A DNA stretch of 64,000 nt, taken from contig CM097886.1 of NCBI GenBank assembly GCA_044892525.1, forward strand, positions 122,264,001-122,328,000, given 5' to 3'. The notes below the pieces were generated by a model. The model was not told the DNA's origin, made no database searches, and saw only the letters and a program-made list of their open reading frames with translations. Made by a program: the position numbers and the translations under genes. This stretch comes from Schmidtea polychroa. Lineage: Eukaryota. Of the stretch, positions 39,857 to 64,000 are shown one piece after another (position 1 is the first letter of the stretch; the number at the start of each line of letters is the position of its first letter).

Positions 39857-41228
39857 ATGTCATAAACAAGGATATTGTACATCTTTAATTAATTGTACAT
39901 CTTATTAAACAAGATTTTATTCTCAAAAATAATTTTATATCAATCAGCCATTTGGATTTAATACATTTATGTGGAAGATGTTTGTTCAAATTTTTTATAG
40001 CTGGGTTGTAATCAAATATTCAATTTTTAGTTCTTCAATTTATTACACAAATCATCCATTGTTCTTTTTTGTTTCATCGTTTATTTTTCAAACTCTTTTA
40101 TTTTACAAAACTATTTTCACATTCACGTTAGTCGGTTAAATGTAATGTCTCGTTTATGATTTACAATTTTTCTGCTTTTAAATATTGTTCCCACACACAA
40201 TTTATCATTTCCATCTAAATAATGCTCAATTAATTCAGTATATAATTCAATTATCCAAACTTCGTATATTTTTGGATTATAGGAAATTTATTATTTCAGT
40301 TAATAAAGAAAGGAGATTTTACCCTGTAATTCTCGGGTAGTTCGAGAGCTGTTCATGATCTATGCTATGTTAGAAAAATAGTATGATGATGGTAAACTTG
40401 ATTAAACAAGATATTAGGGTAATCCTGTAGTTACACATTTCTTGAAGGAATATTTAAATACGATATTCCTAAAACTTTCAAACACCACCTTTTCCATTAT
40501 ATATTATAGTTAACCACTTGTACTGCGTAACTTTATATTATTAAGATTAAATGTACGTTAATGAAATTATTAGTATATATTTCTAATTTCAGTATTAACC
40601 AAATGAAATAGTTTTAAAGATTAAAATTTATAAACATAAAAAATGAAAAGTTTTAATATAAAAATTTTAAATGCCGATTTATATCATCAGTTTCCTGGAA
40701 CCGTGTCTACTTATGATTGATTTTGGATTTACTATTTTGAAAAAATTTAAATTGATAAGATTGTTAAATATTATTATTGATAAAAGATTCACAGCTATTA
40801 ATCAAAAATTAAGGTAATGACTAAATTTAAATTGCTGAATTTATAAAAATTCGTATTACAAATAACAAAACTAATTAAAATTAAAACAAAGAAATGTTGG
40901 GCTGAGTCGAAGGGTATCGGAGAGATTAGGTTAAGCATAACGAAACTAAAATTAAAAATAAAAATAAAATAAACAAATCTACGAAACAAAGTAGAAAGGA
41001 AATAAGAAAAATAATAATTAGAAAATAAGAATTAAAACAAAAAAATATAAAAACACGAAAAATTGAAATAGGACAATAAAATGACGGAAAATGACGTAAA
41101 ATGCAGTAAATAATAAGGAAATTAAAGAAAATAAATAAAAAATACAATAAAAATAAGGAAAATAGGAGGAAATAGCTCAAAAACAAGGAAAACAAATTAA
41201 AGTAATAAAAATAAGCGGTACTCCATTC

Positions 41229-41318
41229 TGATTGGTCCGCATAAATAGAAAACTAATATATAAGCAGACACTAAAATCATAACAATTACCGTTCATCTAA
41301 CCACTACATTAGGTAAGT
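41229..41318 (+). promoter_or_regulatory. LTR promoter (inverted CCAAT, TATA) and splice donor
   Basis: GATTGG at about 41230, TATATAAG at 41257, AG|GTAAGT donor at 41313. Same elements in the 3' LTR (donor at 63975). Confidence 0.55.
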
Positions 41319-43389
41319 GTATTTTAATTAACAATGACCGTTCATCTAACCACTACATTAGAAACCAAAATTCACAGCGACAGCCACAGATTCACCGAAA
41401 TCATTTCAAGGACTATTCTAGGAATCCAGGAAAACTCAACCTATTCTAGTATTAACCATTTCTGTTCAGAACTTTTCGATTCAGCCTATTTGAAAATTTG
41501 GTAAGGGATTTTTTCATTATTTAGGTTTACCATGCAACGATCATGTATATTTATGAATTTATAGTAGTCTAAATTTAACAATAATTTTTCTCTTTTCGTT
41601 TGATTTGAAGGTTTTACTTAATTAAATGTTTTAGTAATTTGGTAATAAACGTTTTATTAGGAATTAAAGGATTTTTTATTATTTGTTGATTTTATGATAT
41701 TTAAAAATTTTGGAGAAACGTGGTGTTGAGATACTCCATGTCATGGTGTGAGGTGCCTTCGGGAGCTCAGCCGGTGGACATGGGGTCTTTTCAATCACGC
41801 AGCTGATTCGGGCCGTAATGTGGGGGCTTCCTCACGGGTCCGTCGCTGAAGGAGTGACTAAATTCTATGAAAAACTCATACGAGGAAGTAGGGTAGGAGA
41901 ATGAATCGATAAATAGGAGAAATTTTGATATGTTCGCGCAGTGATTGAGGGTGTCACACTAGCGTATTATAACAGCGTCTGATCAAGTTAAAAATCTTCT
42001 TTATCATCCAGTAGATCTAGGCAGGTCTTTCGTTAACAAAACCGTCCAACCTTGGTAGTGCTATAGTTGCCATAGTTCTCGAATTCGCTAGAAATTTAAT
42101 CTTGAAGTTTTCAGCTACCGATTTTTGCGAGATCGCTATTCCTATCGGCTATATGTCCTCTCAAGGATGAAATTGTATGAAATCGCGTAATTAAATAGGT
42201 TTAAGTAATCATTAAAAATAAAAGCGAATAACTCCAATCAGTAAAAATGTATTTCTCTAAAAAATAATTCATTAGAATAATGTTTACCCAGTAAAGCATA
42301 AAATGTCCACATCCCGTCGAGTGGAAAATCCAGCATTGGAATAAGTAATAAATCTCCAATTTGACAGCAGTAGCCGGCATACATTGATAGCGATGGAGGG
42401 CCACGAGACGAGCTGGTAAATCATATTTGAGGGATCGTGAATTAATTCCAATATTGATGATGTAGAAATCCGGTTTTTCCAAAATATCCATGAGAGATAG
42501 CAGGCAGCATTTGAGGTAGATACATGGTTCGTCAGTGATGTAATATGTCATAAGGGAAAATACATCTGCATGCATACACAGGCATAGCATAGAGCATGAA
42601 GACATCAGTCAGCGATTATGACTAAGTAGAAGTAGGTGAGAGAAAATTTTCATGCGCCATGCGCTTTAGAATAATCACAGAGGCTACTCGCAATATGTAG
42701 ATTATACAGACTGTTAATCACAGGAAATCCAACCTGACGCGTCAGCTGAAACATAATTCACTGAAACATACTACTGACAGTCACCCGATTTTCTCACCGA
42801 TCAGAAATGATAGATAGCGGCCAGACAGACATTTTGGGTACACGTGGTTAAATTCATTTAAATATTCAACTTTGTCTTAATCATTATTATTTTCTCACAA
42901 CTAAACAAGTGCAAATTAATTTAACAAACTTTTACTCATCACAACAAATAATTGTAGAGCAATTGATAGAGTCTTATTTAGGTTGAATAATTAATTTAAA
43001 GATAAATCGCCTATCCATGCATAAGATCTACACATCCAAATTATTTGTCTTGGGGTAAATCTATAATTTAATTTAAACTCTCTTTAAATGCGAGGTACTG
43101 TTTTCAGGTAAATGGATTTAATTGTAATTTCATCAACCTGTAATTTCCCTTATCCAGGATAATACCTTACTTTCCTTCGGTAAAATCTTGCATGAATGAT
43201 CCACTCTCGTATGAATAATGACCCCAAGCGTACAAGATCTGTAGGGTAACGAAATCTCTTCAGGCTAATAAACTCGTTTTGTCTGTATGATAATCTATGA
43301 TCGGTATGGTATGAGTGTGACTAGATGATGATGTCTCACATTTGCCTTAGTTTGATTTTATTCGCATTTCCTCTTCATAGCTATTCAAG

Positions 43390-44130
43390 ATGTCTTCAAG
43401 TACCAACAACATTCTTAAACCTTGCTTTTCTTGCTCGGACAAGAATTCAATTATCAGGGATCTACAAGCGCAAATTGGAAAATACAAAAGGAAGATCGAT
43501 GAGTTGGAGGGGACATGGTTTAGTCCCACGCAAATGAAAGAGACCCAAAAGAAATTGTATCGAAGCGAGCACTGTCGTGATGCTCTCATTTCCGAAAGTC
43601 GGGCACAGAGGAGCCTGATAAAAGAGCAGTCGGAAGCACTGCATAAACTATACATACAAGCGGCGACCACTAGAAAAATAGCGAAGATCCCAATTAACGA
43701 AGCCAGCAATCTCTTCCCAGCGCACCATGATACTTCCGTCAAGTTTTCGTCTCCACTCGCGAAGTCTTGCCATGGGTGTGTAGAGTCCGAGCTCTCTCCT
43801 AAAGACCCAGAGATTGTATTCACCGGAACCAGTAAGGTCCAGCCAAATCTCGCGTCCTCATCAACCATACAAACGATCACCTCCTCAAAGCCTAAGCGTC
43901 GACAGCTGTCTCGAGCTGAACGCAAACGGAAACAACGGGAACGGGCATCTGTCAAGCAGTGTACATCGTCAATCATCGCTCCAGTCAGCAATATTGATCT
44001 GACGGTGGTCGTCCCAACAACCGGGATCTCCGGGCGAGTCATCTCCGCCGCCGGGGCGACGTGGGAGGAAAACGCCGCCGAGTTCTTTAATCTGGACGAG
44101 TTACTCGCCGACTCGGAGTGGGAGAAATGA
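43390..44130 (+). CDS. LTR-encoded orphan protein, 246 aa (CxxC, coiled coil, basic NLS-like segment, acidic FFxLDE tail)
   Basis: Intact ORF. Diverged homologs at 24390-25060 and 3007-3308 indicate protein-level conservation. Acceptor upstream; AATAAA plus GT-rich tract downstream. Confidence 0.75.
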   Translation: MSSSTNNILKPCFSCSDKNSIIRDLQAQIGKYKRKIDELEGTWFSPTQMKETQKKLYRSEHCRDALISESRAQRSLIKEQSEALHKLYIQAATTRKIAKIPINEASNLFPAHHDTSVKFSSPLAKSCHGCVESELSPKDPEIVFTGTSKVQPNLASSSTIQTITSSKPKRRQLSRAERKRKQRERASVKQCTSSIIAPVSNIDLTVVVPTTGISGRVISAAGATWEENAAEFFNLDELLADSEWEK

Positions 44131-44265
44131 GGATTTCCCCGGAAAATGGCCTCCTTCTCCGTAGAGGATTGAACTTCTTCTGTTGTCGTTTTCTACCTTG
44201 GTGTTATTCAGTTCGTGTAAAATTCCTTGTATAAATTCTCTAGGTGTTTATATAGTAAATTTAAT

Positions 44266-44310
44266 AATAAAAATTTTTCGTTTATGTATGTGTTATCTTG
44301 TGTGTTGAAC
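44266..44310 (+). terminator. Putative LTR polyadenylation signal
   Basis: AATAAA at 44266 followed by a T/GT-rich tract. Confidence 0.45.
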
Positions 44311-44921
44311 TTAGAGAATAATATGAACTTGCAAATGGCACTGAGAGTTGCAGAGAATAAGGAGTATTGGTCAATTGGTAATTCCAGCTAGAAATCTTGC
44401 GATGGGCGACAAAAGGAAATGACGTAAGTCCTTCTATCGGCAGTCAGGGTTAGGAAGTCGAGGCCTCAGTAGGGAGTAGTCCGAAGGAGATGGCTCACCT
44501 GCCTACTGGCGTCTCGCCGGCATAGCACAGTTCCAACGTGAAGCGATTCACGGGTGCTATGTTGGAGGGTAGATTATGTACGGGTCCTGCTCGGCAATGA
44601 CCAGAATCAAGACGAGCGTAATCGATATGGGGCATTCATCCTCTGGACTGAAAGCGGTAATGAAGGGGGTCATCCGGGTAGTCACCCGCCAACAGAAACA
44701 GTATTTTAAAAATATCATGGATATTAATGAATAAGGGAGTAAATAAAAATATAGATTATTACTCAATTGTATTAAACTGAATTTAAATTTAACACGTTCA
44801 CCCCGGCGCGGATCACCGGTGGCCCGCACTAACCTGTCCCATCGGGCGGCGTGTACCACCGGTGGGACGTATTTGATTGTGTTGTTAGACGGTACGTAAC
44901 ATTAAATATTTAGATCTTTAA

Positions 44922-45864
44922 CACTGACTGCCGAAACAGAAGATAGTGCGCAATTTTTTATGAATATACCAAGCATTCGCGAGGGAAGTTACGAATATTA
45001 ATTGTATTACTACTTTTTGATACCATTTTTCGAGTCCATTTCAAAAATTTTACACTGCTACGATTTTCGAAACTCATAATTTCACTACGTTTTTGTTTTT
45101 GTTTTGCCTGCGGTGGAAGGAATTTTTTGTTTATTTTTTTACAGTACCACAAATAAATGTATTTTTCTCTAAAAGTTCTTCACCCAAAGTGACACTTGTA
45201 TAATAATTATTAGTAAATAATATGCGGCCCTCAAATAATAAGCCATTTAGTAATCTCATTACTACATCGTGGGAATATGATTTTTCAATGATCGTTACAT
45301 TTTTTCCGGTATAAATTTCGATATTATAAGTGTAACCTTCAGGCAAACATAATTTGTATAACTTTATGTCATACTTATGTCGCTTGCCTTGGATGTATTG
45401 ACGAAAACCTTGACGTCCTCTCCATTGAACCATACTTTTATCGATAACGATATTTTTGCCAGGTTTAATAGCACTTTTGAAAGTATCCACAATTGCTTCA
45501 ACAATTGTTGTGATATAGTTTGGGTCTATGTTGATAGTGTGGTAATATTAATTAAATTGTTATTATTATTGTTTTATTATAGTTGTGGTAAGTTTGCTGG
45601 AGAGTTTAATAGAGCCCAACCGAGTTTCCTTTAAAAAGAACTGTCTCAGGATAGCTGGGATGTTTGTTTGTAGGTTATTTTATACAAGTAACAACTAAAA
45701 TAAATACGAAATGGGTAAATTACAACAAAAAATAATATTAAACTTTCAAAACGTTTATTTAACAATAAATCAAAGACCTTTATGAAATTCACGGGAGTCC
45801 GTGGATCAGAAGGAATTGTTATTGTTGCTTTGTACTTGGATATTCGGCATGAATTTCGACGTTT
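44922..45864 (-). mobile_element. Truncated piggyBac (PGBD4-like) element
   Basis: TTAA|CACTGACTGCC end at 44922. ORF 45131-45490 reads IVIDKSMVQWRGR..RQYIQGKRHKYDIK..FTNNYYTS. The other end is lost at the LTR junction. Confidence 0.85.
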
Positions 45865-46108
45865 TCGAGGCCTCAGTAGGGAGTAGTCCGAAGGAGATGG
45901 CTCACCTGCCTACTGGCGTCTCGCCGGCATAGCACAGTTCCAACGTGAAGCGATTCATGGGTGCTATGTTGGAGGGTAGATTATGTACGGGTCCTGCTCG
46001 GCAATGACCAGAATCAAGACGATCGTAATCGATATGGGGCATTCATCCTCTGGACTGAAAGCGGTAATGAAGGGGGTCATCCGGGTAGTCACCCGCCAAC
46101 ATAATTTT

Positions 46109-46126: not shown

Positions 46127-46353
46127 ATACATCAATTTCAATTAATTAGCGAATGCAAATTGACTAATACTTCTCGAATCTTATTATAAAGTACGGTTAG
46201 AAAATGACGAAGTAAAGATATAAATAAAGCAAATTTAAATTTGGGAAAATAAAATAAAAGTAAAACAACTTATAACAATTCAAAAGGGAAATGTTTGCTG
46301 AAACCACCATGTATTAGCTGTATATTATTAAAATATTTTCTTTTCCAATAGAC

Positions 46354-46839
46354 ATGACAGAATCCACAGAACTGATGAAACAACTAAGCAACTTCGTTGA
46401 TATAGAAAGCGATCCCATAAAAACGCTTACCCAGAAAAGAGAGAGAATTAAGAGCATACAACTACAAACAATGGGACAAGCACCAATCGTACCTAACCAT
46501 ATGTTATTAGCCATAGGCCTAAGTCGTGCAGATAGTAAAGTGAACCATGAAACCATATATCAGTGGTATCAGGAAAGATTGAGACACCCCGCATTGAATC
46601 TAGAATACCATCGACTACGAGATCAATTAGATATTATATCCGACATAATCGAACAGAAGATACAAGAAAAGCTCACTAAATTACGAACCTGTCTGTCCTG
46701 CAAACTTCGTCCTATTCGCGTACTGTTCTTGCCCTGTGGACACCTCAGTCACTGCGAAGAATGTGTAAACGATCTAAAACGGTGCACAATATGTAAGCAC
46801 GAGATAAAAGAGACTCATATGGTTTATTATGGCGAATAA
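46354..46839 (+). CDS. IAP/Mdm2-type C-terminal RING protein, 161 aa, no BIR
   Basis: CLSCKLRPIRVLFLPCGHLSHCEECVNDLKRCTICKHEIKETHMVY at the extreme C-terminus, preceded by a short coiled coil. Confidence 0.85.
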   Translation: MTESTELMKQLSNFVDIESDPIKTLTQKRERIKSIQLQTMGQAPIVPNHMLLAIGLSRADSKVNHETIYQWYQERLRHPALNLEYHRLRDQLDIISDIIEQKIQEKLTKLRTCLSCKLRPIRVLFLPCGHLSHCEECVNDLKRCTICKHEIKETHMVYYGE

Positions 46840-47400
46840 AAGTGTTAAAGATTTAATGACATTTATGAACATCGAATTGGTACTGACGATTGAATGAGAA
46901 TAAATGTAATTGTTGTGTGAAATATTATTAAAGTCTTAATTTTATTTTTATTTTTTTTATGGCAAATAAATTCTTGTTATAAGCTGAGTAATCCATGGCT
47001 TTTAATTCTATTTTATTTTTTTTTGAATCAAACGAAAAGAGAACTAAACTAACGTGGAACTAGTCCCAATATAGGCTGTAAGGGTACAAACCGAGCCACC
47101 TTCGGGCGGTACGTTCTATCATGAGAAAAACCCATTGGGAGGGGATAACCAATCAACCTAAGTGAGGAGCGTAGGGCGGGGTACCATCGCAAATGATGAG
47201 AAGTTTCTGCGGTGTGACTGATCACCATGCCAATGCAGAAGTGGATCATCGCAATCGTCGTGCGTTTTGAGCAAGGGGGGAAAGGGAAAACACTCTCAAA
47301 CGGTAAAGATTAAGCCGACACATTAAAAACAGAGGCAGAGAAAATGACAATTTAGGGTAAAAGAGGAAAGAGAAGTAAGAGCATGCAGAGTGAGAGATAT

Positions 47401-47787
47401 TAAGACCGAGCTGTCGAAAAGTCCAGCCGGTCAGGGAAATTAAAACTGAGCTGTGAAAAGTCCAGCCAGTCGGAGATATTAAGGCCGAGCTGTTGAAAAG
47501 TCCAGCCGGTCAGGGAAATTGAAACTGAGCTGTGAAAAGTCCAGCCAGTCGGAGATATTAAGGCCGAGCTGTTGAAAAGTCCAGCCGGTCAGGGAAATTG
47601 AAACTGAGCTGTGAAAAGTCCAGCCAGTCGGAGATATTAAGACCGAGTTGTGGAAAAGTCCAGCCGGTCAGGATAATGAAGATTGAGCTGTTGAATAGTG
47701 CCAGCCAGTCGTAAGATCGAGCTGTCGAAAAGTCCAGCCGGTCAGGATAATGAAGATTGAGCTGTCGAATAGTGCCAGCCAGTCGTA
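47401..47787. repeat. About 10 tandem 39/40-bp units forming alternating 79-bp dimers in the element leader
   Basis: GAG(C/T)TG..AAAAGTCCAGCC units at 47408, 47448, 47487, 47527, 47566, 47606, 47645 and onward. Confidence 0.93.
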
Positions 47788-49096
47788 AAGGCCTAGAAAC
47801 ATAATGAGATAGCATTTAAGCTAATAGTGATGAAAGAGTATTAAAGCTAGCTAGAAAACGAATTGAAGTTGGTTACGAGAATTTGAATTTAGAGAGGATT
47901 AAACGAGCTCGTGGGAGGTAATAATGAAATCTTTTCAGTAAGAAAGAGAAACTGAAAAGGAAAATGAATTAAAGAGATAATGAAAATACAGAATAAATGA
48001 GAATAAATGATGAGTAAAAGAGGAAGGTGATTAATTAATTAAATGGGATCCCAGATAAGTAGACAAGGTTCTACAGAATTTTTTGGTTTAAACCGGTTAA
48101 ACGAATTTTGTGTTGATACAGAATAGAACCCAATAAGGGGAAATGGAGATGAAAGATTAAGTAAAATAGCGGAACCGCGTAAAAGGATTAAGAAAATATG
48201 GGAGGTAATAAGCAGCAACTGACAACGACCTATCGATATTATAAATGATAACTATAGATAATTGATACGACCATATTGATAATTGTTACTACCCCAAATA
48301 GATAATTTAAAATCGACGAAAACTATGGGTTGATGGGTAATTATACTCCACGAAGAATTGTATGGGGAAATGAAAAGGAGCATAACAGAGGCCCTAAAAC
48401 GGTGTCTGTGCTTGAATGTGGCAAAAAGGAATGATTGATTCGTGTAAGCAAATGCAACACGATATCATTTTTTCATTGTAGATATCAATCCAACCAAGTC
48501 AATTCAGAACCAGCTCAAAAGGAATCCAGAGAATATACAGACAATCCAGTAAAAGCGATTCAGAACCCGCACAAAGGAAAATAAACCCATCCGAACACGG
48601 AGGACGACAACGACATCTTTATCTACGACGGAATTATCGAAATACTTAGCATCGACGTATTAGCAGAAGTCAATCAAGGACTCAGATATCCCCTCCGGAA
48701 ATCAGCCGAGAAATTACGCGGAATATTCCTCGAAGGAAACACTATCAGCACCGAACTCGACCAATTCAGCAGCCTCTAACCGTAGAAAAATCTACGTGAA
48801 AAGACAGAAAGGAGTAAGAAAGAATCACGGATAAACCCAACCTTAGATCTTCAAGTAAGCCAGGAGACGTATTATTTTCAGGAGACGAATTACAACAACT
48901 CAAAAGAGGACGATCCATTAAACAACAAAGAGGAATATCACAAGGGGCACGAAGAACCGATCAAATACCCATATTTGACCAAGAAAATCTCGGGTACACC
49001 CCTAGTCGATCTCGAAGCAGAGAAAGTCTATCCGACATCACTAATAGTTTAGCAACGTCAACCGAAGAACTAGCAGCCCAAAGTCTAGTCACATCA

Positions 49097-52000
49097 TTGG
49101 ATAATTTAAAAGAAACAGACGAAGTTAGAACACCAATCATGACGAATGTCGTAAAGACCGACGAGTATAAAGAGAAGTTCAGAGGAGAGCCTTTCAACGG
49201 GAATGCGAACAAGTTGGCAACGTTCATAACCAATTTTGAAGTCTATATCGATGTATGTGGATGGACGTCCGAAGCAATTAGTAAACGGATGCCGTTGTTT
49301 TTATGCGATAGCGCATTAGAAGTGTACTTAGAAGCTAAAGAAAGAAATACGAAGTTAGACAATTGGGAAAGCATCAAAACATTCTTGAGGAAAACTTTCG
49401 GAGCCAGCAAACCAATAAATCAAGCGCTGAGCGAACTGGCAAGTAGAAAACAAAGAGCAAATGAATCCATAACGTTATATGCGAGTGAATTGCGAAGATT
49501 GGCAAAGAAGGCCATGAACGGAAACTTGCCGGAGGAAAATTTAATTGGTTACTTCATAGAAGGACTGCGCCGAGAAGAGGTAAGGGCCTCGGTGGGATGT
49601 CAAATGTGTAAAACACTAGAGGAAGCCATAGATTGGGCCACGAGATGCGAACTACACCTCCCGGCACAAATGAATGTCATGCAGGAGGAGGGGAGAATCG
49701 CAGCCGCAACGATAAAAACGGAAAATGGAGATAACAACAATCACGAACCAAAGATGAATCAATTTATACCGGGTGCGCATCAAATTTTCAAACCACCGCA
49801 AGGACGATCAAACGGGAATAACAGTGAACGCAACAACTCGAACAATGGGAATAATTTTAATAATCGACGAAATACGAACGATAACAAACAATGCCGAACA
49901 TGCGGTAAACCAGGACATTGGGATAGAGATTGTTACCGAAGCGCAAATTGCAATAGGTGTGGACGACGAGGACACACGGAAAATATATGTCAATTGAGAG
50001 GATGTTTTAACTGTGGTCAACCGGGTCACATCTCAAGAGACTGTCGAACAAGGAGCCAACCACAACGACCACCACAGCGAAATAATAATTATGCACCAAA
50101 TCCGCAACGACAAAGTAATCCTAGTGAGGGAAAGCAAATGAATGTGATGCAAGAGATTTCACAAATGAAGCAGATGATGCAACAAATGATGAGACCGAGA
50201 CAAGAACAAGTACCACAACAAACTCAGAATATACGTATGATGAGGAGCACCGAAAATCTCAACAATTATGAAGTGCAACAACATGCACAAGAATGGCAGA
50301 GACTACAAGCTGAAGAAGAGAGGATAAAAAGAGAGCGAATTCAGCAGCGACAAGAACAACCATTACGAATAAATATGATGAGAATGGTAAAGGAGATAAA
50401 AGAGCAATATTGTTACAATTACGGTAAAAATCCAAGAGTTGTACCTATGAGCGAACCAGAGAAACCGACAGAAACGATTACAGCAGCTAAAAAAGAAAAT
50501 CCAGCAACACCGCTAAAAGGAAATCAGAGAATTCAGAAAATATTTTGGAAAAAGATAAAAGATAAAATCGAAAGAGAAAATGAGAAAACAAAAACAGAAG
50601 CAGAAGCGATAAATGATGGAAACGAGAAACAAACTAGTCATTTAACCCATGAAATGGTACAAGAATTAGAATCAGAAGAATTAACGATATTTGAGAATAA
50701 AAAGCTCAAGAAAGTTCCAAGAATGAGAAATTTACGAATTAACATGATGAGGACGACAAAGAAGGTGTTGTCAACAGATGACGATGAGGATTATGTGAGT
50801 AGCCTTGGTGGAGAAATGTTACAGTTAAATGAAAATATCGACCAACTAAGGGAAAAGATCGGAGCAGATGAGGATGAAAGTGAAAGCGACGTAACAAGCG
50901 AAAGCGAAGACGAGAATATCGAAATGAAATTGAGAAAAGAAAGAGAAGAAGCGATAAAACAAGTAAAGGAAATACTTCCAGTGGTGGTCAGAAACCAGGA
51001 ATTCATTGACAGTATACCATACAGACGCTTCATACAAAAGATAATGAAACTAGAAAGAAACGAAAAAGACCTAATACCAAACGAGGAAAAAGCGATAATA
51101 AAGAAGTATATGGAAAAAATGAAGCAAGCAGAAACAACACGCTATGTAATAAAAATCGGAACGAGTAAAGGACTCGAGAGAATATGGATAAAAAACGCCG
51201 TTACAGACGAACTTTTCGACTGGATAAGAGAACATTTGGGCAGCTCGAGAAAGAAAGAATACCTGTATCAATATCAAGGAGAACAAATCAAACCCGACAT
51301 GCACCTAATAGATGCATTGATCTGGCCAGGAGAAACTCAAATATTGAAGTTGCATAAAGAGAAGCAACCAACAAATGTTCACGAATGGGCTAAAGACGCC
51401 AAGGCGGAATACGATTTTAATATTAAGCTGAAGTTGGAACAAATAAAACAATGCACCTTGCGACGAAATCTAGATAAATTAATCAAACAAATCCAAGAAC
51501 AAGTCGAAGACAACTGGGATTTGCTCATAGCAAGACGAACTCCAGACATGCATGAACTAATGAGCCGACTGCGCGATACAGAATTGCTCCGAATGAGTGA
51601 TTGGAGAACCATAAATTTGATCCACAAATACGGAAGATTAAAAGAAACGCAACCACAGAAGTTGGAAATAACCATATGGTTACCAAACGAGGAGAAACGA
51701 CGAATAAAAATGAGCAACCAGAGTACGGTGGACGATTTAGTATCTAAGATAAACCAAGAGATAACGGAAAGAGTCCGAAGCGAGAGCAGCGATGGTATGA
51801 TAGATGAAGGGCAAACAGACAAAATAATAGACGAATGGAATGAGTGGCTGAGAAACAACGATAGCTCATTACCAAGAACAGATAACGAGAGAAATCCGAG
51901 TTACGAAAGGACAAGAGAAGCTGGAACAATGATGGAGAAACGGGCAAAAGGGAGGCCCAAGAAGCAAGGAGAAAAACCAGAATTTAAAACCAGAGAACAG

Positions 52001-52702
52001 TTGAAACAGGAACAAGGACAAGTCAGATTAGAGAAATTGGATAAAATAGTATGGGACCTAAAAGAAGCACAACCAACAATCGAGAGAGGCGAAAAATGGA
52101 TACGAGAGCTAGTAAAGGATATGTTAATAATAACGAATCCACAATTGAGACGATTATGGCAACGAAAAGTGGCAAGCGTAGACGCCAGACAACTATGGAA
52201 TGTAATATCCGGAATAATTCCGAAATTAATTAAAGAGAAGACAAAAACCACTAAAACCGATTGGGAAGAGACAAGAAGAGTAATTGAGCAATTAACTCTA
52301 AACGCAAACGACGACGAACATCATTTAGTAGTATTAACGTATCTAATGTACAATTTGATGGGATTAGCAGCAAGAAAAATACCTAACAAACAATTCGCAA
52401 ATCATGTAGAAATGACCGTTACAATCATAGAAAATACAATCGAACCACATATTATCCGCGCCGGTGGGTGGAAAAGGCTCATACAAGCACCACGAAAAAA
52501 CGAGCAAGAGAGATCAATGCAAATCAGGTTGAAGAAATTGCTAAACGAGTTAGAATGGGAATTGCCATTGAAAGACCCAGTCAGCAGAAAAGCGTCAATT
52601 AATTCACTAATGATGACCATGATGATATGGATGTTATGCACCAGCGGAGCAGCTGGATTCACAATCTACGACTGTGACAATTCGATAATGGGAGAAAAAT
52701 AG
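49097..52702 (+). CDS. gag: Extended Gag polyprotein: capsid, 3 CCHC knuckles, Ubl, CARD-like, Ubl, Bcl-2-like, internal signal peptide and glycoprotein N-terminus
   Basis: FNG..F..NFE..W..L..RKQ..ESI..Y..EL..YFIEGL capsid; CRTCGKPGHWDRDC, CNRCGRRGHTENIC, CFNCGQPGHISRDC. Frame is open from 48818; first ATG at 49139. Confidence 0.9.
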   Translation: MDNLKETDEVRTPIMTNVVKTDEYKEKFRGEPFNGNANKLATFITNFEVYIDVCGWTSEAISKRMPLFLCDSALEVYLEAKERNTKLDNWESIKTFLRKTFGASKPINQALSELASRKQRANESITLYASELRRLAKKAMNGNLPEENLIGYFIEGLRREEVRASVGCQMCKTLEEAIDWATRCELHLPAQMNVMQEEGRIAAATIKTENGDNNNHEPKMNQFIPGAHQIFKPPQGRSNGNNSERNNSNNGNNFNNRRNTNDNKQCRTCGKPGHWDRDCYRSANCNRCGRRGHTENICQLRGCFNCGQPGHISRDCRTRSQPQRPPQRNNNYAPNPQRQSNPSEGKQMNVMQEISQMKQMMQQMMRPRQEQVPQQTQNIRMMRSTENLNNYEVQQHAQEWQRLQAEEERIKRERIQQRQEQPLRINMMRMVKEIKEQYCYNYGKNPRVVPMSEPEKPTETITAAKKENPATPLKGNQRIQKIFWKKIKDKIERENEKTKTEAEAINDGNEKQTSHLTHEMVQELESEELTIFENKKLKKVPRMRNLRINMMRTTKKVLSTDDDEDYVSSLGGEMLQLNENIDQLREKIGADEDESESDVTSESEDENIEMKLRKEREEAIKQVKEILPVVVRNQEFIDSIPYRRFIQKIMKLERNEKDLIPNEEKAIIKKYMEKMKQAETTRYVIKIGTSKGLERIWIKNAVTDELFDWIREHLGSSRKKEYLYQYQGEQIKPDMHLIDALIWPGETQILKLHKEKQPTNVHEWAKDAKAEYDFNIKLKLEQIKQCTLRRNLDKLIKQIQEQVEDNWDLLIARRTPDMHELMSRLRDTELLRMSDWRTINLIHKYGRLKETQPQKLEITIWLPNEEKRRIKMSNQSTVDDLVSKINQEITERVRSESSDGMIDEGQTDKIIDEWNEWLRNNDSSLPRTDNERNPSYERTREAGTMMEKRAKGRPKKQGEKPEFKTREQLKQEQGQVRLEKLDKIVWDLKEAQPTIERGEKWIRELVKDMLIITNPQLRRLWQRKVASVDARQLWNVISGIIPKLIKEKTKTTKTDWEETRRVIEQLTLNANDDEHHLVVLTYLMYNLMGLAARKIPNKQFANHVEMTVTIIENTIEPHIIRAGGWKRLIQAPRKNEQERSMQIRLKKLLNELEWELPLKDPVSRKASINSLMMTMMIWMLCTSGAAGFTIYDCDNSIMGEK

Positions 52703-52713
52703 TATCAAAGAAG

Positions 52714-55700
52714 GTGTTGGCGTATTACTGTGGACAATACTCATATTCAACCCTCATATTACCTGGATTAGATAAAGAAATAGTACCTATACAACGGGAA
52801 GACTGTAAAGAGCTTTTTAGAACCGGAGCGATGAGAATCCGGGATGGAGTAACAATACACGGACAAAGCGGAATGATCAAGACGGAAAGTATCTACATAG
52901 CCAAACGGGTAAAATCAACCGATGGATCATGCAACGGAGGTACATATACGATCCGAGGAGAGGTAATATCCGGGGTAGTAGTAATCGAGTCCTACACAGT
53001 GGAGTTGAAGGAATACGAAGCGCAATTCGACGCAAATAATTATCAAATGAAAACCAACCCAGCATGCAGAGCTACGGAAAACGTATGTAGAACGGGAATT
53101 TCGACTATAATATATGAAGCCAACACCCAAAAATGCCGTCTCCAATTGTTAAAAAGTGCTTTGTTCAATGAAGTAAAAGGAGAAATTTATGAAAACGAAG
53201 ATGATGATGAAGAGAATGGAAACGTAAGGATGCGAAATGGGAAACCAGTTCCACCATCCCCCAAAGAAAAGAGACTCACAACACAAAAAACAAATACCTG
53301 GATAGCCAACGGAAGTTATATACCCCCAGATATCGTTGGACAACAAGCAGCTCTAACCATGACACAAAATATGTATCCACAGTTACCAAGTCAACCAGGA
53401 GTGAACTATATGCCAACCCGAAGAACGAAAAGCGTAGACCAAGCTGATGACGTCAGAACAATAGCAGTAATGAGTTCACCAGGAGGCGCGGCAGTAACAG
53501 TCATGATCCAAATCAACGGGAAAGAGACAAGCGCAATGATAGATACCGGAGCAAATGTATCAGCAATAGCAATAAACCAAATACCCAGTAAATATTGGAA
53601 AGATATCGAACAAACAACTATCCATATTATTGCATGCAGTAAAGAAACCGTAGACGTAGTAGGAAGATGGTGGACTACGTTACGATATCAAGATAATGAA
53701 ATTGAAACGTATCTAGCGGTGATACCCAAACTGAGCGAACCATGTATAATCGGAACGGATTTAATGCCGGAATTGTTCAAGGAAGTAGTAATCGATTTAA
53801 CAACAATGTGTCTAAAAGACAAAATGGGTAGAATATGCAAGATGAACGCAATAATTAGATGCCCGGAGAAAATAAATGTACCAGCAAAATCACAGATGAT
53901 ATGTCAAATAAAAGTGGATACAGGAATGGAAGGAGAAGCCATTTTTGAGCCAAGCAAATCATTCGAAAAACGACGAGAATTACCATTAGCAAGAGAAATA
54001 ATAACAATAAATGAAGAGGGGGAAATACCAATTAACATCACAAATTTCGAAGAGGAAGATAAGATCATATATGAAAATGAAAGATTGGGTAGATTGACAC
54101 CCATGATAGACATCGAATTGCCAAAAATCACCAATGAATCAACGAAAGCTGAAGAATTATGGATAATTGATAGCACCTTGCTAACGGAAAAGGAGAAGGA
54201 AAGACTCCAACAACTATTGATAGAATATAAAGATATATTCGCAATTTCGGATTTGGATTTGGGAGCATGTGAGGTCACACTACACGCAATACCATTAATA
54301 GACGAAACTCCAATTGCGTTACGACCATACAAACTAGCAGAGAAGCAAAAAGAGATAGCCGAAGCCGAAGTACAAAAAATGCTAGATGCACAAGTGATCG
54401 AACCAAGTTGTTCGCCATGGCAATTTCCAGTAGTCATGGTGAAGAAAAAAGATGGTACTCAGAGATTCTGTATCGATTATCGGAAACTAAATGCAGTAAC
54501 AAAAAGAGACACATACCCGTTACCAGACATCAATGAGATGTTACTTATGCTGCAGGGGGCCGCATATTTTACGTCTCTAGATCTAAAGAGCGGATATTGG
54601 CAGATCAAAGTCAAGGAGGAAGACAAAGAGAAAACAGCATTCACATTGGGCCGAGATCTATACCAATTCAGGAAAATGCCGTTTGGACTAACCAACGCCC
54701 CAGCATCATTTCAGAGATGTATGAATTTTGTCACACACGGGATCAAGCAGTGTATGGTATATATTGATGATTTATTAATATATTCAGCAACATTCGAACA
54801 ACATTTGGAAGACATTAGAAACGTGTTCATCCGATTACGACAATGGAAATTGAAACTCAAACCATCCAAATGTGATTGGGCAAAAGAAGAGGTTACGTTC
54901 TTAGGACACATAGTGTCAGCAAAAGGCAAAGAACCAGATCCAAGAAACATAGAAAAAATAAAAACATGCCCAGCACCAAAAACCGTCACTCAAGTGCAAG
55001 AATTTCTCGGATTATGCGGATATTATCGTAAATTCATTAAGAATTACGCAGGCATTGCGAAACCAATCCAGGAATTAGTGAAAAAAGATATCTCATTTAT
55101 TTGGGGTGCAGAACAGCAAAAAGCATTCGAAACACTACGAGACAAATTGATTGAAGCTCCAATACTAGTACATCCTGATTTCAAAAAACCGTTCCTGTTA
55201 GCAACAGATGCCAGTGGATATGCAGCCGGAGCAATATTAGGACAACTCGATGAGGAAGGAAAAGAAAGAGTGATCGGATATTACAGTAGAACGTTTAAGA
55301 AGCATGAGAAAAACTATTCCGTAACTGAAAGAGAAGCGTTAGCAATAATACAAGCGATTAAACATTTTCGATATTTGTTATGGGGACACGAAATATGTAT
55401 CACAACGGATCATCAACCATTGGTATGGCTCGGACAGCACAAAGAAGCTTCAAGTAGGTTGATGCGATGGGCAATGCAGTTACAAGAATATTCACCGTTC
55501 ATAAAATTCAAAGCGGGAAGAGCAAATGCCAATGCAGATTGTATGTCCAGATTTATTTTTCCAGACTTAGTAGATCACGAAATGCAACGAATATGTCTGA
55601 TGGTAGCAGAAGATTTGGATTTTTGTCAATTACGGAAAGACCAACAAGAGGATGTAGAGTTGAAACAAATAATCGAGTATGTGAAAACCGGGAAAGCAGA

Positions 55701-57138
55701 GGTATATGAGAAGGATCAAAAATTGAAAGAACATATGGATAAACATCGGCATCGATATATTATTGAGAAGGATTGGTTATTGATAATGGATGGGGAAAAG
55801 AGACTGATGTGCATCCCCGAGAATAGATGTAAAGATCTACTAACACAATATCATGATGGAAGACTCGGAGGACATATGTCATCTAAAACAATTGCTGGAA
55901 TACTAATTGCATGGAGGAACCCGATCAAAAACGATTATATGGTAGATATAAACGAAACATTTACCAAAGGAGAAAACACCTTGATGAGAGAAGCGATGAG
56001 AGGACATCACCTATTCGAAATTCCAAATCAACTACTACAACGTGGCATAAAGTTTTCAAATCACAAAGACGAACAACTAATCAGAAAACGAATTACCAAC
56101 TTCGAAAAAGCTATATCTCAATTTACCGATAAAGTACAAGTAAAATTTTGGGAAACCGTGAGTGTATTATATATGATGGAAACTATGAATAACATTCGAG
56201 AAAACTACCTAAGTATTATTCAAGTTCTAACGGCAGAGGAACGCGTTAACAGTTCGAACAAGAAAAAGATAAAAATCAAGAAAATAACAGCAAGAGAGTC
56301 TGAGAAACGAGTCGATCAAATAATAAACGATGTAGCAACAACAAGTAAACCAAAGACAATAAACTCCGACCAAGAGATAGTAGTACGTAAGGCTAAGGAA
56401 GTATTCTTTGAAGAAATGCAAGATCTATCTGATGAAGCGATACTAGCAAAAATAATAAAAACAGTACACACCTACGCAAGAGACCAGACCACAAATTTAG
56501 ACATAGGAAAAATAAAAACATTTATACCACTAGCATTCACCTTACCAACAAAAGATTCAAGAACACCATTACAACAAGCCATTCTAGCAGCAAAGGAAAA
56601 CAGAGCAATAACCATCGTAAGAATTCTTAGAGACTTCGGAGAAGAATCGAATGCAAAAAATGAACAAGGAGAAACAGCAATGATGTATGCAGCAATAACA
56701 AATATACACCCGAAAACCTTACATATACTACACCAATCAGGTTCGAGACTTGACGAAATATCAAACGAAGGAAATTCTACCATGGATTGGGCAACAATAC
56801 AACCAAACTTGGAAATGATTAGATTCATTTGTAAAAATGCTACAAGAACTGAGGTAGAAAATATCTGTAAAAATACGTCACAATTCCAGTGGGATACGAT
56901 ACGGAAAAATTTGGAAGCCATGAAGTTATTGTTAACCTGGAAAATACCACAAAGCAATAAATATGCAATAAACATAAATGAGTTCTACGAAAACGGAGAA
57001 AATGCTATGGTTAAAAATACGCTGACAAAAGGAGGAACTCCGAAAATCATAATGATCATATTGAACAGAGAAGACCTCAAATTCACGCAAAATCAAACGA
57101 ACAAAAGCGAATCGGAAAACATCGTCGAATACAATTAA
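52714..57138 (+). CDS. pol: Glycoprotein fragment + Pol (PR, RT, RNase H, truncated IN) + ankyrin repeats
   Basis: IDTGA at 53539; YIDD at 54758; ATDASG..ERE..TDH RNase H; YHDGRLGGH then loss of the IN core; GETAMMYAA and GNSTMDWA ankyrin-like repeats. Confidence 0.93.
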   Translation: MLAYYCGQYSYSTLILPGLDKEIVPIQREDCKELFRTGAMRIRDGVTIHGQSGMIKTESIYIAKRVKSTDGSCNGGTYTIRGEVISGVVVIESYTVELKEYEAQFDANNYQMKTNPACRATENVCRTGISTIIYEANTQKCRLQLLKSALFNEVKGEIYENEDDDEENGNVRMRNGKPVPPSPKEKRLTTQKTNTWIANGSYIPPDIVGQQAALTMTQNMYPQLPSQPGVNYMPTRRTKSVDQADDVRTIAVMSSPGGAAVTVMIQINGKETSAMIDTGANVSAIAINQIPSKYWKDIEQTTIHIIACSKETVDVVGRWWTTLRYQDNEIETYLAVIPKLSEPCIIGTDLMPELFKEVVIDLTTMCLKDKMGRICKMNAIIRCPEKINVPAKSQMICQIKVDTGMEGEAIFEPSKSFEKRRELPLAREIITINEEGEIPINITNFEEEDKIIYENERLGRLTPMIDIELPKITNESTKAEELWIIDSTLLTEKEKERLQQLLIEYKDIFAISDLDLGACEVTLHAIPLIDETPIALRPYKLAEKQKEIAEAEVQKMLDAQVIEPSCSPWQFPVVMVKKKDGTQRFCIDYRKLNAVTKRDTYPLPDINEMLLMLQGAAYFTSLDLKSGYWQIKVKEEDKEKTAFTLGRDLYQFRKMPFGLTNAPASFQRCMNFVTHGIKQCMVYIDDLLIYSATFEQHLEDIRNVFIRLRQWKLKLKPSKCDWAKEEVTFLGHIVSAKGKEPDPRNIEKIKTCPAPKTVTQVQEFLGLCGYYRKFIKNYAGIAKPIQELVKKDISFIWGAEQQKAFETLRDKLIEAPILVHPDFKKPFLLATDASGYAAGAILGQLDEEGKERVIGYYSRTFKKHEKNYSVTEREALAIIQAIKHFRYLLWGHEICITTDHQPLVWLGQHKEASSRLMRWAMQLQEYSPFIKFKAGRANANADCMSRFIFPDLVDHEMQRICLMVAEDLDFCQLRKDQQEDVELKQIIEYVKTGKAEVYEKDQKLKEHMDKHRHRYIIEKDWLLIMDGEKRLMCIPENRCKDLLTQYHDGRLGGHMSSKTIAGILIAWRNPIKNDYMVDINETFTKGENTLMREAMRGHHLFEIPNQLLQRGIKFSNHKDEQLIRKRITNFEKAISQFTDKVQVKFWETVSVLYMMETMNNIRENYLSIIQVLTAEERVNSSNKKKIKIKKITARESEKRVDQIINDVATTSKPKTINSDQEIVVRKAKEVFFEEMQDLSDEAILAKIIKTVHTYARDQTTNLDIGKIKTFIPLAFTLPTKDSRTPLQQAILAAKENRAITIVRILRDFGEESNAKNEQGETAMMYAAITNIHPKTLHILHQSGSRLDEISNEGNSTMDWATIQPNLEMIRFICKNATRTEVENICKNTSQFQWDTIRKNLEAMKLLLTWKIPQSNKYAININEFYENGENAMVKNTLTKGGTPKIIMIILNREDLKFTQNQTNKSESENIVEYN

Positions 57139-57143
57139 GGGAA

Positions 57144-58508
57144 TTGGTAAAAGAATGGAATAGAAAGAGACATGCAGCAACAGGAAGAAAAGAATTTGAA
57201 TTCGAAGCAAAATTAGCAAGAAATAGAGTGCTAACAGCATATCGCAGATTGTTGAACGATATAAATGTCGAGGACGACATTTTAAACGACAGCGGGGGAG
57301 ATAAAGACGATAAAGACGACAATAATGATGAAACAGGTCAAAACGGGAATGGAGAGAAAGAGGAATCAGAGGAGAATAATCAAGGGAATAACGACTCAAG
57401 TATAAAAAAGGAGGAAAATAAGCCGGGAAACCGAACAAAGGAAGAGGAGAAGACGAATAATGGGAAACAGAGGGTATGCCTACTTTTTACCAACAAGGAA
57501 ATGGAGACAAATATGATGGTAATGATACTCATACTAACAATGGTAGAAATGATAACAGCCCACGGTGGAATGAGAACGATATAGGAAGCCAAAGAAACGG
57601 AAAATAAAGACAACAATGAGGAGGAACTAAAACAAGAAAAGAAAAAGCAAGTACAAGAACAACAATGGGATCTGAAGGAGGAATGGAATCTAAAAGAAAG
57701 GTGCATACTAGGAAGATGTGTGTCGAGAGCATATCAGAGACTAGTGTTAATAAATGAAGATACAGAACCGATAACGGAAGTAAGAATACAAGAAGCGTAC
57801 CGAAATCGAGACGGGAAGAGAATAACGAAAGTCAAAGGGAAGGAGGTACACCTGGGAAAAGGAGGTGAGGTAGTGATAACGCAACTCCAGCCAAGAAAAG
57901 AACACAAAGTCTGCATTTCAAGATTAAGACCGGGTGAAGACTGTCTACAATATGTAACACAGCAACAACCTCCAAAAGAATACACAGTATGCATCTGGAG
58001 AAAAGATACAGCGAGAGAATGTCGACGATACCCTGGGAAAAGAGGGAAGAAAAGAAAAGGCAACGATGAGAAAGAGGAGGAAGAAAAGCGCAAGAAAACT
58101 AGTGAGAAATATCAAGATAATTACGTGTCAGAAGAAGAAATGGAAAAAATACAAAAAATGGCAAAGGAAGGGATCAATGAGGAAATAACGAAAATACGGG
58201 GATTGGAGAAAGGAAAAAGCCAAACAGAGAAAGATGCAGAAACAGCAAGTACAATAACAGGCAATGGAAACTCAGAGACCATCAGTGTAAAGCAGATGAT
58301 ATGGATCAGCGGAATAATAATAATCGGAGCGTTCATAACTATAACGGGGGGGACGATAAAAATAATCCGAGATAAACAACAGCGTAACAAACTCGAAATG
58401 ATCAGAGCTAGAAATTTTCAGCATCGAGTAAAACGACCAAATAATATCAAGCAGGAACAGTGGGTGGAGGCCTGGAATGCTCAGCGCCCTCCAAACTCAC
58501 GTATATAG
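57144..58508 (+). pseudogene. Polyprotein tail: acidic linker, signal peptide, FN3-like ectodomain, TM, short tail (in-frame TAG at 57582)
   Basis: ORFs 57144-57584 and 57720-58508 share one frame with only one stop between them. Signal MMVMILILTMVEMITAHG; ITQLQPRKEHKVCI and QPPKEYTVCI motifs; TM at 58296-58367. Confidence 0.6.
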
Positions 58509-58677
58509 AAAGGATTATGACTGTATATAGATTGTAAAAAGTAAGTATATAATATTTATTTATATAACAGTATTCTATATCTCTATATAAGCGCGGTATC
58601 ACTATTATATAATGATGGGGACAATTAATATAAAAATAAAATTTAGATAAGAGTTGAAAAGTGTATATAAATTAGGA

Positions 58678-59037
58678 ATGGAGCAAGGAAATAACGAAAT
58701 GAACCACAACACAGTAACTGAAGAATTATGGAAGCAACAATGTGCCGTATTAGCACAATTAGTGTCTAATTTACAAGAACAAGGATTGACGATGCAAAAG
58801 AACCTAATCGAGAGTATGAACAGAGGATTTAGTTATTTGAAAATAATTGAAGACCAGAGGTTAAAAATCGAACAAATGCACAGGGAAATAGAGAGGATAA
58901 CCCAATATAGCCGGAGATAGGAAATCGAATTGGAAAGAATGGTGGAGGAAGCAGAACAGACAGAAATAGAAGATTGGTCAGAATGGCTAATGAGTAGAGA
59001 GGAGGGCGGACACGAAGCCGACTCTTCCGAACCATAG
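58678..59037 (+). CDS. Small coiled-coil accessory ORF with one internal TAG (58918)
   Basis: ATG at 58678 after an acceptor. Coding-like Glu-rich frame continues past the TAG to 59037. Confidence 0.45.
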
Positions 59038-59122
59038 ACCAAACCTAAATTAAAATGTAAATAACTGTAAATAAAATCTCGAGCCTGTATCGATAAGAAC
59101 TATATGTATATATAATTATAGA

Positions 59123-60511
59123 ATGGATAAACGACAAAGAGAAGAGTTCAGAGAGATTGTCGAACAAGTCCGAAAATCTACAACGATCAAAATACACAAA
59201 CATGTCATGTGTGGAATATGTGAAAAGTTGTTAAAGGAACCTCACCAAACCCAATGTGGATGTAGATTATGTAAGGAATGTATCAGTGAAACAATAAAAA
59301 ATAGACCACAGTGGTGTCCGGTGTGCAGAGAGACACTAATATCGAGTTTAGAAGACACTAACGAGGATAAAGCCGCAGTGAAAGACATGCTAAATACCAA
59401 TCTGGGATGCAAAAATACCCCATGCGAATGGAAAGGAGTAATATGGAAAGTAGTGCAACATATGGGAGAATGTATGTACAAAATCGGCCAATGTGAAAGG
59501 TGCCATAAAACTATTCGGGCAAGCGAAGAAAAAGAGCATCAAAACCAGTGTGAAGAGAGATTAGAAAGATGCGAACATTGTGGAGAATTAGATACGTGGA
59601 AAAATCTCACCAGCGAACATCACAATGTCCAAGAGGAAAAGGTATGTGCAGAGTTCTGCGGTGAATGCCCGAACAGATGCAACGAAAGGGGAATAATAAA
59701 ATTAGCTCAGCACCTAAAAGAATGTGAAAAGAAAAGAATGATATGTGTGCTAGGTAAATGGGGCTGTCCAACACTATTACACCGAGGAGACCTACCACAC
59801 CACCTAATGGAAAATGTAATAACTCACGCAGAAATGTGGTCAACTGCGTTACAAGAAAGCGAAGAGAAAGTAAAACAAATGAGAATAGAGATAACATCGT
59901 TGAAAGGGTTAGTCAAAGAACTACTAGAAGAAAGAGAAGCGTTCGAAGAAGCCCGAGCTAACATAAAAATGCAAATAAATCGTATAGAAATTAGCAACAA
60001 TCAGGCCAAGGTGCTACATCAAAAGATAACAGAGATAAATCTAAACGAAGTAATGCCAACAGCACCCTACATATGGAAGATAACGGGAATAAAAGAAAGA
60101 ATACGAAAAGCAAAAACCGGAGAAGATACAAGACTAACAAGCCCCGCATTTCATTCCTGGAAAAACGGATACAAAATGAAAATGAAGGTATACCCCAACG
60201 GGGACGGAACCGGATTAGATACGCATTTTTCGATCTTCTTTATGCTCTGTAAAGGGGAGTATGATGAAATATTAGAATGGCCGTTCCAGGCAAAAATCGA
60301 TATTACTCTAATGAACAACCAAAGTATACATGAGCAAAGCTTCAAAACAACGGGGAATCAGATAGCTTACCAGAGGCCCCTCAACGAAGAAGGAGCAGCA
60401 ACAGGAGCACCGACGTTCATCTTACAACAAAGGGTAGAAGATATGGCGAGAAATGATACCGTATATATCAAGATGACGGTTCGGAGGGAAGGAAAGAGTA
60501 GAACCGAGTAA
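59123..60511 (+). CDS. TRAF: TRAF-family protein (RING, Zn fingers, coiled coil, MATH), intronless, element-borne
   Basis: CGICEKLL..CGCRLCKEC..CPVC; C.N..C.W.G..H..C fingers; MATH YIWKI..SPAF..GYKM..YPNGDG..THFSIF..KGEYD..WPF. Confidence 0.95.
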   Translation: MDKRQREEFREIVEQVRKSTTIKIHKHVMCGICEKLLKEPHQTQCGCRLCKECISETIKNRPQWCPVCRETLISSLEDTNEDKAAVKDMLNTNLGCKNTPCEWKGVIWKVVQHMGECMYKIGQCERCHKTIRASEEKEHQNQCEERLERCEHCGELDTWKNLTSEHHNVQEEKVCAEFCGECPNRCNERGIIKLAQHLKECEKKRMICVLGKWGCPTLLHRGDLPHHLMENVITHAEMWSTALQESEEKVKQMRIEITSLKGLVKELLEEREAFEEARANIKMQINRIEISNNQAKVLHQKITEINLNEVMPTAPYIWKITGIKERIRKAKTGEDTRLTSPAFHSWKNGYKMKMKVYPNGDGTGLDTHFSIFFMLCKGEYDEILEWPFQAKIDITLMNNQSIHEQSFKTTGNQIAYQRPLNEEGAATGAPTFILQQRVEDMARNDTVYIKMTVRREGKSRTE

Positions 60512-60688
60512 CCAGGGTGAATAACGTTGTATATAATAAACCTGTATATATCGGTGTATATAACCAGTAAAATAATATATAATAGTAGTATGGGAACCCC
60601 AATTACGATAATCCAAAAATAAAGCGAAAATTTGTTGAATAATAAAATTGATACAAACTGAACTTATCAATATTCCTAATTTAGAATA

Positions 60689-61735: not shown

Positions 61736-61910
61736 GGGCTAATAAAAAATTCAAAAATTGGGACGTATATCCCAAACAAAAAAAAAAAAAAAAAAATTAA
61801 TAGTACAGTAAAAGTATTTGAGGGACTGTAACCCTGTGTAAATAAAAACGATATAAATGTATAAGTATAAGTCGCACTGTAGCGCATGATTAATTGTAAA
61901 TATTATAGAT

Positions 61911-62615: not shown

Positions 62616-62654
62616 AAGCAATTAAAGCCAGTGTAAATAATATAATAATAATAG

Positions 62655-63556: not shown

Positions 63557-64000
63557 TGTTGGGCTGAGTCGAAGGGTATCGGAGAGATTAGGTTAAGCAT
63601 AACGAAACTAAAATTAAAAATAAAATTAAAATAAACAAATCTACGAAACAAAGTAGAAAGGAAACAAGAAAAATAATAATTAGAAAATAAGAATTAAAAC
63701 AAAAAAATATAAAAACACGAAAAATTGAAATAGGACAATAAAATGACGGAAAATGACGTAAAATGCAGTAAATAATAAGGAAATTAAAGAAAATAAATAA
63801 AAAATACAATAAAAATAAGGAAAATAGGAGGAAATAGCTCAAAAACAAGGAAAACAAATTAAAGTAATAAAAATAAGCGGTACTCCATTCTGATTGGTCC
63901 GCATAAATAGAAAACTAATATATAAGCAGACACTAAAATCATAACAATTACCGTTCATCTAACCACTACATTAGGTAAGTGTATTTTAATTAACAATGAC
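63557..64000 (+). mobile_element. 3' LTR (first 444 bp)
   Basis: Starts TGTTGGGCTGAG; matches 40895-41338 with 2 substitutions seen. Confidence 0.93.

Follow-up and report, generated by a model that had tools for sequence, protein, structure and literature searches.

INTRODUCTION

The Burro elements (GYPSM1) of planarians, giant gypsy-like retroelements, are the closest described counterparts of the element analysed here. Their published description (PMC6431247) gives a 4,873-aa ORF in which a ubiquitin-like part, a BCL2-like motif, an in-frame env and a protease follow one another, and it credits the BCL2-like motif to Grohme et al. 2018. The domain considered below is therefore already in print as an annotation, a BCL2-like motif before the in-frame env of Burro. 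Burro1 also carries an IAP, which protects stem cells according to a 2026 study cited in PMC13465017. Among the papers listed by our literature searches, none put the function of the BCL2 motif of Burro to the test; Grohme et al. 2018 and the 2026 Burro1 study may say more about it.

Env is likewise placed between gag and pol in the GAG-ENV-POL errantiviruses with an HSV/gB-type env, which are reported in Platyhelminthes among other phyla (Chary and Hayashi, PMC13524379); they differ from the present element in that the main text of that report mentions neither Bcl nor Burro. Divergent Bcl-2 folds carried by selfish elements are known from ASFV (A179L), EBV (BHRF1), KSHV (KsBcl-2), poxviruses (M11L/N1L/A52) and, as reported homologues, adintoviruses (PMC8502044). 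All these are free-standing genes of DNA viruses, whereas the domain described here is a module of a retroelement polyprotein.

We analysed a stretch of 64,000 nucleotides of Schmidtea polychroa (GCA_044892525.1, contig CM097886.1, positions 122,264,001 to 122,328,000 of the forward strand), hereafter the window, in which an earlier note, made from the letters alone, had proposed a Bcl-2-like domain at the end of Gag. To the existing annotation we add a whole-domain fold prediction, conservation in three element families, purifying selection and a testable topology.

RESULTS

Layout of the element in the window

The features of the element are collected in Table 1. The peptide singled out by the earlier note sits in the first open frame of the plus strand (48818-52702), about 680 aa downstream of the zinc knuckles in this copy, and the interval it gave (52090-52490) spans the entire predicted domain.

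Table 1. Features of the element, in window coordinates
Feature	Position	Strand	Basis or remark
5′ LTR, begins TG, at least this length	40895..45865	+	99.88% identical to 3′ LTR
Accessory ORF, RING finger at C-terminus	46318..46839	+	Pfam
First open frame: Gag, accessory region, Bcl-2 fold, signal, first env residues	48818..52702	+	ended by deletion near 52700
Retrotrans_gag and CCHC zinc knuckles	49292..50047	+	Pfam
Ubiquitin-like-fold match, weak (PI3K_rbd, E 0.0022)	51641..51778	+	deletion near 51806 follows
Additional predicted helix upstream of the Bcl-2-fold domain	52031..52069	+	alignable across all three element families
Predicted Bcl-2-fold domain, helices 1-8	52085..52501	+	Pfam, fold models, structure searches
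Linker with predicted helix, domain to signal	52505..52555	+	model
Basic pair and hydrophobic stretch: likely internal env signal, candidate membrane tether of upstream piece	52586..52657	+	PF24664 starts here in sister families
Second open frame: env remnant, protease, RT, RNase H, ankyrin	52678..57138	+	Pfam
Env remnant, fusion glycoprotein PF24664	52711-53091	+	Pfam
Protease	53500-53775	+	Pfam
RT	54439-54915	+	Pfam
RNase H	55102-55491	+	Pfam
Ankyrin repeats	56584-56841	+	Pfam
Accessory TRAF-like ORF (RING, MATH)	59075..60511	+	Pfam
3′ LTR start, continues beyond window end	63557..64000	+	LTR pairing

This layout is that published for Burro: one frame of about 4,800 aa with Gag and CCHC knuckles, a ubiquitin-like part, the BCL2-like motif, an in-frame env, PR-RT-RH-IN and ankyrin repeats, MATH/TRAF in the polyprotein or in an accessory ORF, and LTRs of about 5 kb. 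The likeness is one of layout, as no named Burro1-4 entry came up in the protein databases searched, and the copy in the window differs in being internally deleted. Burro has a single ORF of about 4,800-5,100 aa, in which env follows gag and precedes pol without a change of frame; many sister copies of our element have frames of 4,724-4,817 aa with the same arrangement. The BCL2-like motif lies directly before env and the ubiquitin-like part upstream, the matches to the latter being weak (E 0.002-0.065). Burro elements are near or above 30 kb in total; here the LTRs, of at least 4,971 nt with 7 differences between the pair, lie 22.7 kb apart from start to start in the deleted copy. No BIR domain was found in the element ORFs scanned.

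An LTR end and a target-site duplication were sought for this copy and not found. The two LTRs cease to match at 45865, where there is no CA end; a nested insertion or a rearrangement may be the cause. A 240-nt stretch of the LTR (44458-44697) is repeated at 45865-46104, and the LTR contains a 249-aa ORF (43381-44130). Upstream of the polyprotein frame lies a tandem array of 74-79-nt units (47389-47785), also present in one sister copy. The region 59075-63266, which lies within the element, opens with the TRAF-like ORF; a pair of coiled-coil ORFs comes next, together with an ORF of 203 aa that contains two hydrophobic stretches.

The domain lies inside a single polyprotein

The frame of the window stops 80 aa after the GGW motif of the domain, and the earlier note placed the domain at the end of Gag. 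This placement did not survive comparison with the other copies in the genome. A search of the genome gave 925 candidates, 150 of which were scored (92-100% identity), and by hand count more than 50 of these 150 lie in frames of 4,724-4,817 aa. Sister loci that were fetched all read beyond the stop of the window into an in-frame env (29/29), and 27 of the 29 are open to the end of the locus. Compared with one sister copy, the window is without sequence near 51806, 52700, 53290 and 55888; the greater part of env and the integrase core have been lost. The junction at 52700 is spanned by the window's copy only (1 of 40 scored, from 114 candidates), and the end of Gag is thus an artefact of a deletion seen only here. 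On the same count we could rule out a deleted variant that spreads with the Bcl-2 domain as its true C-terminus. The domain sits inside a single Gag-accessory-env-Pol polyprotein.

Contigs of four public runs cover the region, although such contigs cannot show transcription; they diverge from the window at 51806, 52700 and 53290. Over positions 55887-62359 of the window, identity to the sister copy falls to 81% from the 91-96% seen upstream, a drop that points to recombination between subfamilies.

Resemblance to Bcl-2 in sequence profiles and predicted folds

Taken as a single sequence, the domain resembles Bcl-2 weakly. Pfam Bcl-2 (PF00452) is its best family, with 15.5 bits (E 0.027), below the 31.4-bit cut-off, and phmmer with the single sequence did not find Bcl-2 in the PDB. 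A profile of six Bcl-2 rows from outside the retroelements gave 8.2 bits on the domain, a score reached by 3 of 2000 shuffles, and with this profile the domain was not outstanding among the 1040 six-frame segments of the window. No relatives were found in the large protein databases searched, the sole match among 1.84 billion representative proteins being an unrelated repeat protein. Identity to cellular pro-survival Bcl-2 proteins is 8-15%.

Support for the resemblance comes from the sister families and from the folds. Alignments of retroelement rows only, searched against the PDB, gave Bcl-xL as top match (E 0.006 and 0.004). With hhalign, the retroelement profile matched the six other genomic Bcl-2 rows at 92.6% (E 4.5e-7). 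Pfam Bcl-2 matches 7 of the 12 aligned retroelement members, with a best E of 9e-7 in family B (see below), whose scores of about 29-32 bits lie around the cut-off of 31.4.

Two models of the domain were built. The first, made from 7 retroelement rows and no genomic Bcl-2 rows, reached a pLDDT of 49.8; the second, made from 12 retroelement rows and 4 genomic Bcl-2 rows, reached 85.6 and is partly circular because of the Bcl-2 rows in its alignment, unlike the first. In Foldseek, the rows shown belonged to the Bcl-2 family for both models, 43/43 for the first (E 0.13-0.37) and 36/36 for the second (TM 0.57-0.74, none with E < 0.001); against a viral library, most matches of the second were Bcl-2 homologues of herpes-, pox- and adenoviruses and of ASFV, with weak E values. 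VIA-align placed the second model on Bcl-2 folds with Z 14.2 and rmsd 2.6 over 137/139 residues, 36 Bcl-2-fold entries preceding the first unrelated row (Z 6.2). Its best rows are pro-survival proteins (Hydra Bcl-2-4, A179L, Bfl-1 and Bcl-xL). BAX, BAK and non-apoptotic poxviral folds occur in the same lists, so the fold alone cannot tell pro-survival from other uses.

Residues 52085-52501 are thus predicted to adopt a full Bcl-2 fold. In the second model, 7-8 helices pack around a hydrophobic helix 5 at the centre, and by its Foldseek matches the weaker, independent first model agrees. Helix 4 is predicted at 52262-52297, helix 5 at 52319-52378 and helix 6 at 52391-52468, with GGW at 52463-52471; helix 3 is short (6 residues in the model with pLDDT 85.6). 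The resemblance that the earlier note had drawn by eye, helix for helix through GGW, is borne out by this placement (52262-52471), and the Bcl-2 bundle and profile match on which it had staked its proposal were both recovered (Foldseek, VIA-align, hhalign).

An ordinary helical bundle could by chance look like Bcl-2. The weak single-sequence scores and the VIA-align result for the first model, in which generic three-helix bundles came first and Bcl-xL at rank 27 (Z 7.4), would suit such a coincidence. We consider it very improbable: family profiles, hhalign, Pfam, Foldseek and VIA-align of the second model all point the same way, as does the published annotation, and the family profile together with the whole-domain match largely refutes it.

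BH motifs and the question of an adaptor

The BH3 motif of the Bcl-2 family, in helix 2, reads L-x-x-x-G-D, and in cellular members the Gly-Arg of NWGR in BH1 grips BH3 ligands. NWGR is absent from the domain, as the earlier note had seen. The aligned position reads NANDDEHH in this copy and family A, SEDQNRY in family D and GVNRDKV in family B, so that the motif is lost in A and D and partly kept in B (GVNRD). No G-D or A-D was found in the helix 2 region. A BH2-like motif is present, P-[HYW]-I-x-x-x-GGW, in which P, I and GGW are invariant in 12/12 rows from the three families; the first Trp of BH2 (W-I-x-x-x-GGW) is His in this copy (P-H-I-x-x-x-GGW). Family B, with GVNRD at BH1 and PWI-GGW at BH2, comes nearest to canonical Bcl-2.

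Compared with cellular pro-survival proteins (Bcl-xL, Bfl-1, Hydra Bcl-2-4; PF00452), the domain shares the complete helical fold, as predicted (Z 13-14, rmsd 2.6-3.0), the GGW of BH2 and a downstream hydrophobic segment. It differs in its low identity, its score below the Pfam cut-off, the lack of NWGR and of a BH3 motif, the short helix 3 and its embedding in a polyprotein, where the hydrophobic segment is the likely env signal.

With its BH1 and BH3 motifs lost, the domain might instead serve as an adaptor in non-apoptotic signalling, as vaccinia A52, B14, K7 and A46 do, and would then probably dampen TRAF/NF-kB-type or ubiquitin signalling from the ER membrane. The same element has a TRAF-like ORF, a RING ORF, ankyrin repeats and ubiquitin-like parts, and A52, N1L, A46 and B14 are among the structural matches. 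These poxviral folds score Z 6.5-8.7 in VIA-align, however, below the Z 12-14 of pro-survival proteins, the BH2 GGW is invariant in all 12 rows, and several viral anti-apoptotic Bcl-2 proteins also lack NWGR. We regard an adaptor as possible, if somewhat unlikely.

Conservation in three element families

Pfam and pattern searches revealed two further families of retroelements in which the domain occupies this position, D (with 32% identity to family A, that of the window) and B (19-24%). All three keep the order Bcl-2 domain, hydrophobic signal and YDC env start. A pattern covering the three families gave 661 matches, the first 100 being those listed, against 0 in the control. The env-start pattern revealed no fourth family: it had 24 matches, and the control had 14. 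In family A the TRAF gene forms an ORF of its own downstream, and in family D a MATH domain lies inside the polyprotein.

For the domain, family A has pairwise dN/dS values of 0.03-0.04 (34 copies, picked by protein similarity), family D of 0.07-0.14 (7 copies) and family B of 0.15-0.19 (14 copies). The protein is kept under purifying selection. This constraint is not specific to the domain, since the flanking linker and env have equally low values (0.03-0.07).

A constraint equal to that of neighbouring structural regions would suit a captured fold that serves as a matrix-like, membrane-facing module of the particle, linking Gag to the env-bearing membrane and having no host target. The domain is made one-to-one with Gag and env, and its site beside the env signal is fixed in the three families. 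We think this unlikely, given that family B retains BH1-like and BH2 residues and that GAG-ENV-POL elements occur in other phyla, where the main text describing them is without Bcl (PMC13524379).

The env signal as a candidate anchor

The hydrophobic run begins about 40 residues after GGW; in families A, D and B alike, a basic pair accompanies the run, and 68-76 residues separate GGW from the YDC env start. The run takes in the start of the Pfam fusion profile, which identifies it as the likely env signal. Over 19 residues its KD is 1.35-1.96, whereas the env anchor of family A reaches 2.53. The domain contains 0 Cys and the next 550 residues of env 13-14, a difference that fits cytosol for the one and lumen for the other.

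In polyproteins with internal signals, such as those containing HCV core or flavivirus capsid, the cleaved signal stays on the upstream cytosolic piece, which thereby takes a tail-anchor topology at the ER. By analogy, it is plausible that the run doubles as tail anchor of the Bcl-2 domain, and the location would be the ER. The run is only moderately hydrophobic and could later be removed from the upstream piece.

Repeated words of the type x-N/C-M-M occur after the capsid, after the knuckles, before the protease and after RNase H, and judged by sequence they are candidate protease sites. We defined the motif once the sites had been seen, and it has 0 matches in family B; looser versions match within the supposed accessory piece.

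Other Bcl-2 genes and the origin of the domain

Bcl-2 folds occur in two unrelated classes of mobile elements of this genome, in three retroelement families and two Polinton families. Retroelement profiles score a genomic gene (L042) and a Polinton gene (L053) highest. In a tree of 15 rows, in which the spliced Polinton gene is represented by its first exon only, branch support was weak (55/69) and AU tests rejected 0 of 4 alternative sister groups (p 0.30-0.40); from these sequences, the donor of the domain cannot be named.

Several Bcl-2-like genes were recorded in passing. A short two-exon gene with a hydrophobic tail lies in Maverick/Polinton-like elements (L074-L103, L104-L109), next to an integrase-chromo gene, an A32-like ATPase and a TBP-like gene, and has 1,359 pattern matches in the genome (G000). 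A second Polinton-like family (L053-L058, L137, L138) has an intronless Bcl-2-like ORF (32.7 bits) in the same place, between polymerase-like and TBP-like genes. Seven near-identical canonical Bcl-2-family genes with NWGR (L031-L037) lie in one region (G000:C4, about 89.9-90.8 Mb).

DISCUSSION

The reading that we prefer, with a probability of about one half, is that the Bcl-2-fold domain of this Burro-type polyprotein acts as an ER-tethered pro-survival decoy. The internal signal would bring the ribosome to the ER, signal peptidase would release env into the lumen, and the signal would be retained on the C-terminus of the cytosolic piece in tail-anchor topology. The protease of the element would likely remove capsid and nucleocapsid, so that about 1,100 aa would remain as an accessory piece with the ubiquitin-like parts and the Bcl-2 fold. 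By binding the BH3 helices of host death effectors or of Beclin, this piece would keep cells that express the element alive. We infer this anti-death function from the predicted fold and its setting; the loss of NWGR in families A and D, its partial retention in B and the short helix 3 argue against a decoy.

A wider picture, which we put forward as doubtful, would join several of these threads. The env signal would do double duty and yield an ER-anchored Bcl-2-fold module without the canonical motif for gripping BH3. Together with the other cargo of the element (TRAF, RING, ankyrin and ubiquitin-like), the module would block signalling in the manner of poxviruses or, beside the IAP of Burro, give planarian stem cells a second survival factor, and the Bcl-2 folds of the two unrelated mobile-element classes might go back to a single divergent lineage of the host.

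Should the domain indeed block cell death, a retroelement present in hundreds of copies would have, besides its IAP, a second means of tuning apoptosis in an animal used to model regeneration.
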